DNA from: Candidatus Heimdallarchaeota archaeon
Lineage (GTDB): Archaea; Asgardarchaeota; Heimdallarchaeia; JABLTI01
NCBI GenBank assembly: GCA_019056785.1
Contig: DXJV01000074.1
Coordinates: forward strand, 1-13,998
DNA length: 13,998 nucleotides
Reading direction: 5' to 3'
The position numbers were made by a program, and so were the translations under genes. Below the pieces are notes generated by a model. That model ran no database searches. It was not told the origin of the DNA and worked only from the letters and a program-made list of their open reading frames with translations. Below, piece after piece: positions 3,027-4,426 of this stretch (positions are counted from its first letter, which is position 1; each line of letters opens with the position of its first letter).

Positions 3027-4007
3027 TCAACGCAACACGACTTCAATGATATCTTGATCCTCAACGACATGCTCTAAGCCAACTTTTTGTCCATCGAACT
3101 CAACAGAAGAGCCCCAGACACGAGCGAAACGAAAGCGAGTAAGAAAACTACTATGAATTTTTTGGATTGTGTCTTTTATTGTCGCGCCGCGATGTAAAAC
3201 AATTGGTTCATTGAGCCGTGGTTTTTCTCGGGGCGGTTTTGTATAGACTCTGATAATATCTAAGAGATTAAAAAGTGACTTTTTCAGCTCTTCTAGAGAA
3301 GCAGCATTATTTGCCGCAGTGGGAAATACAGGCCAGTCTACCTTTTGAAGTAGTTTTTGGTAAGCCTTTTTCGAACCCGGTAGATCGCCTTTTGTGGCAA
3401 TTACCGCCAATTTATATTTCGACTTGCCGTCTATGAAAATCTTCGCTTCTTCTAATTGATGAATAAGGAAGGTCAATTGTCGATCGATGTCCATTGTTAA
3501 ATCAATCACCATTAGAATGGCATCACAGGTTCGTGCAACACGTTTGATCTGCTTTGCAATAGTCCAATCATCTTTGAAGTCTAAGAATCCCGGTAAATCA
3601 ACAATTTGGAAAGTCACTCCTTGGTATGTACAAGCCCCTGCTTGTCCGATGGTTGTAGTATTAAGATAATTCCCTACTGCAACATCTGTATTTGTTATTG
3701 CATTCATAAGAGTACTTTTACCCACATTAGATAGACCAAAAAGTGCGAGACGCCCGACACCTGACTTTGGGATCTCAAAAGGATCAAAGGTTCGTCCCTT
3801 TACTTTTGGTTTTTTCAGAACTTCAGCTTTCTTTTCTTCAAGCCATTTAATGAGATTTTTATAAGGGCCCCAATCATCCAATTTTTTGCTATGGATTTCC
3901 TCGATTGTTGCATCTGCAGCTTTAATAAATTCCTTACCTTCGACTAATCGCAAACGATTTGCTATTTTATAGAGGAAATAACGATATTTTGTATAACGAT
4001 TTCCCAT
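3027..4007 (-). CDS. DRG-like OBG-family GTPase with C-terminal TGS domain
   Basis: G1 GLSNVGKS, G2 YLNTT, G3 DLPG, G4 TKGD. TGS domain IIRVYTKP...FARVWGSS..FDGQKVGLEHVVEDQDIIEV. SD GAGGTGA at 4014-4020. Confidence 0.9.
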   Translation of the reverse strand: MGNRYTKYRYFLYKIANRLRLVEGKEFIKAADATIEEIHSKKLDDWGPYKNLIKWLEEKKAEVLKKPKVKGRTFDPFEIPKSGVGRLALFGLSNVGKSTLMNAITNTDVAVGNYLNTTTIGQAGACTYQGVTFQIVDLPGFLDFKDDWTIAKQIKRVARTCDAILMVIDLTMDIDRQLTFLIHQLEEAKIFIDGKSKYKLAVIATKGDLPGSKKAYQKLLQKVDWPVFPTAANNAASLEELKKSLFNLLDIIRVYTKPPREKPRLNEPIVLHRGATIKDTIQKIHSSFLTRFRFARVWGSSVEFDGQKVGLEHVVEDQDIIEVVLR

Positions 4008-4123
4008 TAATTTTCACCTCGGTTTTCATTTTCAATCTTTTACATAGTGTTAATTTTTCCACACAATTCATCACTCAAACCAAGTAAAGAAAATGATTAG
4101 AAAAAGCAATAGGAAGTCACTTT

Positions 4124-4269
4124 GAACCTTTTCTCAACACACAAAAGTTAGCCTCGAGAAAAACCAGTAAACCTACGCTTCGCTAATCACTTTCTTCTAA
4201 TGATTGCGAGCGAGATCCCCTCGCACCAAGTCAAGAGGTACGGCTAATAAACTGCAAGGTTCGGTTCAC
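4124..4269 (-). ncRNA. Putative structured RNA (standalone sRNA or leader of the DRG gene)
   Basis: Nested helices 4124-4130/4256-4262, 4148-4153/4242-4247 and 4171-4174/4236-4239 enclose hairpins at 4176-4212 and 4205-4225. BRE-TATA gaaaaagtc-TTTATTA lies on the - strand at 4292-4307, and a U-tract follows at about 4101-4105. Confidence 0.5.
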
Positions 4270-4426
4270 ATTTTAATTAGTTACAATTCACTAATAAAGA
4301 CTTTTTCTTAAATAGAAAAATAATTCACAATCTTCTGAATGTTAAAATAACAATACAGAATTTCAAACATTCATTGTTCAGTATTAAGATTTAAAATCGA
4401 GGATTATCTTTTATTACTCGATTTAA

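Follow-up and report, generated by a model that had tools for sequence, protein, structure and literature searches.

A stretch of 13,998 nucleotides (nt) from Candidatus Heimdallarchaeota archaeon (assembly GCA_019056785.1, contig DXJV01000074.1; this whole stretch is called the window here) carries on its minus strand a structured RNA ahead of a gene for a ribosome-associated GTPase. Comparison with homologous loci identifies this RNA as a real, conserved leader preceding the GTPase gene in Asgard archaea, and the copies found define it, at the sequence level, as a new RNA family with about 47 members. It combines a very short open reading frame (mini-ORF) close to the predicted 5′ end, three helices (P1, P2 and P3) which are predicted to form a three-way junction closed by P1, a run of uridines, and a segment beyond this run which competes for one of the helices. 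The reading that we favour, with a probability of roughly one half, is that the RNA is the 5′ leader of the mRNA of a short DRG-like GTPase and serves as a ribosome-dependent, attenuator-type sensor in cis, which would raise the amount of the GTPase when ribosomes stall on the mini-ORF. The initial annotation of the window had proposed that the flagged region is either an independent RNA of some 150 nt or an attenuator/riboswitch-like leader. The leader is the better supported of the two, given the conserved gene order, the covariation of two segments on either side of the U-run and the lack of a second promoter, whereas the standalone RNA of about 150 nt is not backed by homology.

The conserved unit comprises about 111 nt on the minus strand (4269-4159). 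In BLAST comparisons with relatives, the flanks of the homologues are collinear over about 110 nt and the conserved core centres on GCGAGGGGATCTCGC. The homologues follow a common plan: the TATA box keeps a fixed distance, the 5′ end can pair with a segment near the 3′ end, and there is a T-run. The promoter on the minus strand, predicted earlier from the window itself, is located at 4307-4292 (GAAAAAGTCTTTATTA) and consists of an A-rich B recognition element (BRE) and TTTATA; about 40 homologous loci have an equivalent box with identical spacing. When a position weight matrix was built from these leader promoters and applied leave-one-out, the held-out promoters scored a median of 10 bits. 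About 22 nt separate the BRE/TATA element from the predicted transcript (GUGAACCGAACCUUG...), and the TATA spacing common to the homologous loci places its start at G4269, in agreement with the start near 4269 given before. The orientation was likewise confirmed, as the folding of the minus strand, unlike that of the plus strand (z = -0.30), is more stable than that of shuffled versions (z = -2.16 for 4100-4275 and z = -2.20 for 4159-4269) and the G-U pairs of P1 fit the minus strand alone. The proposed end near 4100, and with it the size of about 150 nt, had to be given up: homology argues for a unit that ends near 4159, at the first U-run (4163-4159). The U-tract near 4100 does exist, but it sits within the downstream competing segment, termed Y (4107-4092).

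Of the roughly 47 copies found, three are metagenomic, and the others belong to three Heimdall-type families (f1, f2 and f3) and to some Loki-type genomes. A covariance model built from eight copies was used to search 83 genomes of the class and detected exactly one full-length copy in each of 26 genomes from families f1 and f2. Further copies missed by this model were found upstream of GTPase orthologues in more f2 genera and in family f3, where about 150 nt are inserted in P3. A phylum-wide protein search traced the GTPase paralog to two further families, with the element upstream in the Loki-type loci L063, L068 and L069; these copies also carry P3 insertions of about 150 nt, as in f3. The three metagenomic matches were picked solely by the P2 and P3 pattern and nevertheless share the geometry of the mini-ORF, while a fourth match to this pattern was a chance match in GC-rich DNA. 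The DNA sequencing runs that contain the stretch are hydrothermal-vent and marine-sediment metagenomes.

Within its own genome assembly of 2.87 Mb the element is present in a single copy according to BLAST, pattern search and RNA model, and the relative genomes in which the RNA model found it also hold one copy each. The stretch is thus not a mobile repeat, and the miniature inverted-repeat transposable element (MITE) or dispersed repeat that the initial annotation had wished to exclude is ruled out. The Rfam scan proposed at the same time was run on the window and eight homologous loci and gave no match to Rfam 15 at gathering scores; the best sub-threshold match of a permissive scan, to SNORA13 with an E-value of 0.37, is a chance one. 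ARAGORN recognized neither a transfer RNA nor a transfer-messenger RNA (tmRNA) in the element. A tmRNA-like RNA with a tag ORF was also ruled out on the grounds of this negative result, a conserved AUG in frame and the absence of any conserved CCA end on inspection. Conserved C/D or H/ACA boxes were not seen by eye, the sequence CUGA...UGAUGA of two f2 copies not being conserved. No description of the element was found in a literature search.

In the window the mini-ORF runs from UUG at 4257 through seven sense codons to UGA at 4231 on the minus strand (LQFISRTS*) and is also in frame with GUG 4269, in which case it would have 12 codons. This corrects the earlier statement that no ORF spans the region. 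All copies with an intact 5′ part have a start codon, six to eight sense codons and a stop codon between the 5′ end and P2. Among 40 tabulated copies the start is AUG in 39, the window with its UUG being the other one, and the stops are distributed over UGA (16), UAA (13) and UAG (11). The length is eight codons in 32 and seven in eight of them, and six codons in L054 and L063, so that length changes come in threes. The stop codon is followed by a spacer (4230-4225 in the window) of exactly 6 nt in 46 of 47 copies and of 5 nt in L054. For 37 unique ORFs, in-frame internal stops are absent from frame 0, compared with seven and ten in the other two frames; shuffling gave a mean of 8.3 ORFs with stops and never reached zero in 2000 rounds. 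From these alignments, the frame is clearly under selection to remain open and in register, and we infer that it is translated. Since the TATA spacing predicts only about 4-12 nt ahead of the start codon, the mRNA would be nearly leaderless. No regulatory codons and no conserved arrest motif were seen in the peptides on comparison of the clades, and the conservation of a C at position -12 from the stop concerns the base and not the encoded residue. That the stop position is never UGG is, by a rough estimate, not significant alone.

The spacer leads directly into P2, an almost invariant hairpin (GCGAG-GGGAU-CUCGC, 4224-4210) with a GNRA-like loop of GGGA plus N. Its compensatory double changes include GCGAA/UUCGC, CCGAG/CUCGG and, in a whole subclade of f3, GCGCU/AGCGC. 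P3 follows as a covarying stem (CGCAAUCAUU / AGAAGAA / AGUGAUUAGCG, 4208-4181), then a purine-rich junction J3/1 (AAGCGUA, 4180-4174), which reads UAGCG...UAG in f1 and GNGUAG in f2 and f3. The 5′ strand of P1 (GUGAACC, 4269-4263) begins with the predicted transcript start and pairs with GGUUUAC at 4173-4167, and the helix covaries across families (GUGGAC/GUCCAC in f1, AACAAUG/CAUUGUU in f2 and AAAUGACC/GGUCAUUU in f3). In f2 and f3 it takes in the start codon and the first codons of the mini-ORF (AACAAUGN with NCAUUGUU; AAAUGACC with GGUCAUUU), and in f1 its 5′ strand lies immediately 5′ of the start codon. The two central hairpins of the initial annotation, AAUCAUU-AGAAGAA-AGUGAUU (P3) and GCGAG...CUCGC (P2), thus proved to be conserved and covarying, although the register UGCGAG...CUCGCA given for the latter is not the conserved one and the second CUCGC repeat is peculiar to the window. 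A likeness to the sarcin-ricin loop was considered for P2 and J3/1 and dropped, as the structural context differs and the genome has no look-alike.

Covariation was measured on two alignments, one fitted to the model (A2) and one made with MAFFT from 15 f2 copies without such fitting (A3), with slid partners as controls. In A2, 85% of the cells are paired (36-45% in the slid controls) and the covariation score amounts to 0.437 against at most 0.118, with none of 500 shuffles reaching the observed value; in A3, 82.8% of the cells are paired (34-48% when slid) and the score reaches 0.188, the slid controls remaining at or below 0.085. Past the junction motif, a run of at least four T begins within 6-26 nt in 37 of 40 elements, compared with a background of 43% within 30 nt. 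In the window this first U-run is UUUUU (4163-4159), a putative archaeal termination or pause site. A simple terminator scan found no terminator, and P1 is a long-range helix and not a compact hairpin.

Beyond the U-run, generally at a distance of about 40-60 nt, lies segment Y (GCUUUUUCUAAUCAUU, 4107-4092 in the window), which is complementary to segment X, composed of the 3′ strand of P3 and the junction motif (4191-4174), and hence competes with the 5′ strand of P3. The two segments covary, with GAUUAG opposite CUAGUU or CUAAUC, GUUUAG opposite CUAAAU, GAAGUAG opposite UUACUUC and GGAGUAG opposite CUACUCU. The z-scores of the X:Y duplexes go down to -5.4, with a mean of -1.7. Cognate duplexes average -14.0 kcal/mol compared with -11.4 kcal/mol for non-cognate ones and are better in 31 of 40 cases (Wilcoxon p = 8e-5, a generous value given the kinship of the sequences). 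For the full 265-nt leader of the window, X:Y belongs to the minimum-energy state (-76.5 kcal/mol; enforcing P1 gives -62.8 kcal/mol). As one strand is common to P3 and X:Y, the two are mutually exclusive, and P1 includes the start region of the mini-ORF. Two competitions are accordingly supported by the comparisons: P3 against X:Y, and P1 against the occupancy of the start region by a ribosome. Read-through transcripts would have to exist because the selected partner Y lies beyond the U-run. In the fold with P1 enforced, the U-run and the bases following it (UUUUUCUCGA) can pair with UUGAGAAAA about 20 nt further on, and this modelled local hairpin (window 4163-4131, minus strand) could hide the U-run in read-through transcripts.

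These competitions give the term switch-like, used in the initial annotation, a different content: competing helices exist, but not the proposed one of CUCGCA with GCGAAGCG. The latter pairing, of the 3′ strand of P2 with a downstream GCGAG or AGCG, does not covary, because the f3 subclade with GCGCU/AGCGC retains the old downstream motif, and it was rejected. Similarly, the claim that the 5′ and 3′ ends pair stands for the conserved closing helix GUGAACC/GGUUUAC, while the outer helices have weak support that is restricted to one family. Their downstream strands form a segment Z (4153-4124, with GGCUAA at 4153-4148 and AAGGUUC at 4130-4124) that is complementary to the body of the mini-ORF and to the 5′ end. 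The helices GAACCUU/AAGGUUC and UUAGCC/GGCUAA are present in the window and have loose analogues in f1, where cognate pairings average -11.7 kcal/mol and non-cognate ones -7.3 kcal/mol (eight sequences); they were not found in f2 or f3, and over all families p = 0.13. A further, tentative candidate is an anti-Shine-Dalgarno segment overlapping Y (4095-4076), which pairs with AAACCGAGGUGAAAAU in single-sequence folds.

The gene behind the leader (4007-3027, minus strand) encodes a protein of 326 amino acids (aa) with an N-terminal helical region, a G domain and a TGS domain (Pfam MMR_HSR1 and TGS). Its best solved relatives are yeast Rbg1 and Rbg2. The G domain is of the Obg type, with the motifs G1 (GKS) and G3 (DLPG) and with TKGD at G4, and is without the S5D2L/MMR_HSR1_Xtn insertion that characterises the DRG family and is carried by the canonical DRG of the same genome. 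No NCBIfam equivalog was reached, and on sequence criteria the protein is best called a short DRG-like paralog. A Shine-Dalgarno sequence (GAGGUGA, 4020-4014, minus strand) precedes it, and every orthologous locus has a strong one 5-8 nt ahead of the start codon, from which it follows that the GTPase mRNA has a 5′ untranslated region. In 23 of the 26 loci found by the RNA model, the GTPase orthologue is the next gene downstream, co-oriented and 107-180 nt away, while the upstream neighbours differ. No second promoter was detected in the interval from the U-run to the GTPase, where the best sites reach a median of 2.8 bits, in contrast to 10 bits for the leader promoters, and have no consistent position. 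The genome carries three TGS-bearing GTPases and only the short one has the leader: it is missing from the canonical DRG (389 aa, with the MMR_HSR1_Xtn insertion) and from the YGR210-like Obg-type GTPase, the two being encoded at L057:1492-2661 and L059:1480-2685 (both minus strand; contigs C31 and C11).

From this arrangement the following course of events can be proposed. Order, fixed spacing, covariation and helix competition come from comparison; the mechanistic steps built upon them, including the direction and the level of control, are our deduction. A ribosome would load at the 5′-proximal start codon as the RNA emerges and translate the mini-ORF, and meanwhile RNA polymerase would transcribe the approximately 70 nt that separate the stop codon from the U-run. 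P1 should form only when the start region is free of ribosomes. With fast translation, the ribosome would either be gone or stand at the stop codon abutting P2 without melting it. By our own estimate from published ribosome footprints, P2 lies at the entry channel of a ribosome on the stop codon, which fits the spacer of 6 nt. The start region being free, P1 would close right behind the polymerase, leading to termination or pausing at the U-run and to a short RNA of about 105-115 nt. A ribosome that is slow or stalled on the first codons would block P1 and permit the polymerase to read through, after which Y would capture X, lock the leader open and allow the GTPase mRNA to be completed. DRG/Rbg1-type GTPases have been reported to relieve stalled ribosomes (10.1101/2024.04.20.590341; 10.1101/2020.07.06.190082), and the leader would therefore close a homeostatic loop in which stalled ribosomes induce a factor that relieves stalling.

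Several observations weigh against this ribosome-dependent attenuator. Substitutions in the ORF show no significant three-base periodicity (55/60/67 over the tree and 11/17/19 in close pairs), and synonymous changes are only modestly enriched, with 19 synonymous and 21 non-synonymous codon changes where 27% synonymous would be expected. The peptides share no motif across clades, as MKPYLRAE, MSLLNRTI, MSIPVLCV and MDTHSQTL all differ. In f1, P1 lies upstream of the start codon, where blocking it would require a ribosome in initiation or at the very first steps of translation. For intrinsic termination in archaea an oligo-U tract alone is generally considered enough, and P1 may play no part in it. 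On the structural side, RNAalifold without assistance finds P2 and no other helix in either alignment, whereas P1 and P3 were specified by the analyst and then tested, and kinship among the sequences makes the statistics look more significant than they are. Masking of the GTPase Shine-Dalgarno sequence, whether by the C/U-rich ORF or by the segment adjacent to Y, appears in some lineages (the window, L013-15, L032/33 and L027/31), but is neither consistent nor significant across species.

Other explanations have to be considered against this background. The element could be a small gene of its own, giving a stable RNA of about 110 nt with its 3′ end at the first U-run; this would work in trans as a small RNA, or else the GTPase would use it as partner or substrate (e.g. 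by binding it through the TGS domain); it may also encode a micropeptide of eight residues, and synteny would then reflect a shared function instead of a shared transcript. We consider this unlikely, although it would account well for the strong promoter of its own and for the pairing of the ends followed by a U-run in 37 of 40 elements. Activity in trans is, moreover, reported for short RNAs derived from bacterial attenuators, such as rnTrpL (PMC7968998). In one genome (G038, locus L026, contig C4) the element (3187-3303) is separated from the GTPase (5691) by an inserted gene on the opposite strand, a variant that could show whether the short RNA functions alone. A gene ending at the U-run leaves the conservation of segment Y beyond it, and its variation in step with X, without an explanation. 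The missing second promoter and the Shine-Dalgarno sequence always retained by the GTPase, which requires a transcription start upstream, also speak for a shared transcript, and a micropeptide is at odds with the lack of sequence conservation between clades. A much less probable variant is the nested structured RNA of about 150 nt (4269-4100) ending at the U-tract near 4100. Its outer helices exist in the window, with loosely analogous complements after the first U-run in f1, and the 176-nt stretch folds better than its shuffles (z = -2.16), but collinear homology stops at the first U-run, the outer helices were not found in families f2 and f3, and the U-tract at 4104-4100 is part of Y.

Alternatively, the junction could bind a small molecule (e.g. 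a guanine nucleotide) or the GTPase itself and toggle between P3 and X:Y, in the manner of a riboswitch or a protein-binding leader, and the mini-ORF would be a constrained single-stranded linker which is untranslated or incidentally translated. An almost invariant P2 and J3/1 next to a freely varying P3 resemble an aptamer core, the alternative pairing downstream of it could serve as an expression platform, and the lack of codon periodicity and the C at -12, conserved regardless of the amino acid, would be expected of a linker. A linker, however, does not have to keep frame 0 and no other frame open, to retain a start codon outside P1 in f1, to alternate between three stop codons at one fixed place or to change its length in threes. 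An Rfam match is lacking, and mimicry of another RNA is unsupported, as nothing resembling the P2 hairpin was found in the rest of the genome (in which the ribosomal RNA may be unassembled). We regard a ligand-dependent leader as improbable, too, and retain the attenuator sensing translation of the mini-ORF as the preferred explanation.

Among known systems, the nearest precedent by analogy is Listeria monocytogenes, where the hflXr paralog is controlled by the small-ORF attenuator rli80 and the housekeeping paralog is not (PMC6310831). In both cases a ribosome-associated GTPase of the Obg/HflX group has a specialised second paralog, and this paralog lies behind a short RNA that has its own promoter and contains a small ORF, helices excluding one another, and a U-run; the housekeeping paralog has no such leader. 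There is no homology of sequence or structure between the two. The bacterial rli80 has an ORF of 14 codons, an RLR arrest motif and a compact terminator hairpin; the archaeal element has 7-8 codons without a conserved motif, a very short leader before the ORF and, ahead of the U-run, a helix that closes a three-way junction.

Inducible resistance genes such as cat and cmlA also possess short leader ORFs, of the same class as that of ermC. In the E. coli topAI-yjhQP operon the upstream ORF (uORF) toiL senses stalling (PMC12121999). The toiL and ermC leaders (for ermC attenuation: PMC6310831) resemble the Asgard element in that their ORFs are very short and that stalling remodels an RNA helix involving the ORF itself. 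Leaders of the toiL/ermC type, in contrast, unmask a ribosome-binding site or act via Rho, whereas masking of the Shine-Dalgarno sequence is not consistent in the Asgard leader and any factor-dependent step would need archaeal machinery. Leaderless polycysteine short ORFs of mycobacteria act as attenuators (bioRxiv 10.1101/834739) and are likewise regulatory mini-ORFs at, or nearly at, the 5′ end of the transcript, but they sense cysteine through runs of Cys codons, and the Asgard mini-ORF has no repeated or conserved codon. Riboswitches with three-way junctions share the conserved junction core followed by alternative pairing downstream; unlike them, the Asgard leader matches no Rfam 15 family, has no known ligand and uses a conserved reading frame as one arm.

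Some observations concern other copies of the GTPase. In family f20 (L065, L066 and L067) the same short GTPase occurs without the mini-ORF leader, and directly upstream of it is an ORF of about 80-98 aa that has a Shine-Dalgarno sequence of its own and no Pfam match (L065:266-562, plus strand, and at the same place in L066 and L067); its product could be a partner protein. These loci also contain a conserved block of about 110 nt, ACTATACTTTGGCCGGATTATGATTCAA ... CATAATC ... TTTATATCAGGTGT, with an inverted repeat (L065 ~20-120, L066 ~280-400 and L067 ~30-130), which may be another structured RNA. The f2 genome G044 (contigs C55 and C2) has two copies of the short GTPase, one of them 72% identical to the f1-type protein of the window, and this could stem from contamination of the bin or from gene transfer. 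In L055 (family f4), a weak GTPase match is preceded by a gene whose product ends like an actin (...KMWVTRKEYNDSGPKAVYRCI*), in keeping with an Asgard host.

Regulation by leader ORFs is textbook knowledge in bacteria, and in eukaryotes uORFs are widespread and control based on them is the rule. To our knowledge, no well-characterised ribosome-sensing leader exists in archaea, and none described for archaea was found in a literature search. The leader presented here may, as a possibility that we hold to be slightly less likely than not, be the first ribosome-dependent leader-peptide attenuator described in Archaea. In it a frame of eight codons, set before a hairpin at the 6 nt that correspond to one ribosome-entry distance, would report how fast translation runs or whether it stalls, and would thus set the level of a dedicated stall-relieving GTPase. 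The family, well defined with its approximately 47 members, could be added to RNA family databases, and its strict geometry, in which a start codon very near the 5′ end is followed by a frame of 7-8 codons, 6 nt of spacer and a hairpin, provides a precise and testable design rule. If the mechanism holds, it would be an archaeal variant of a regulatory principle known from bacteria, and its confirmation would mean that Asgard archaea attenuate transcription by coupling it to translation. The leader would mark this lineage-specific member of the DRG/Rbg1 family as a translation factor induced by stress, and so give a handle on the function of the paralog. If true, a feedback loop responding to translational stress would be present in Heimdall- and Loki-type lineages, among the closest prokaryotic relatives of eukaryotes.

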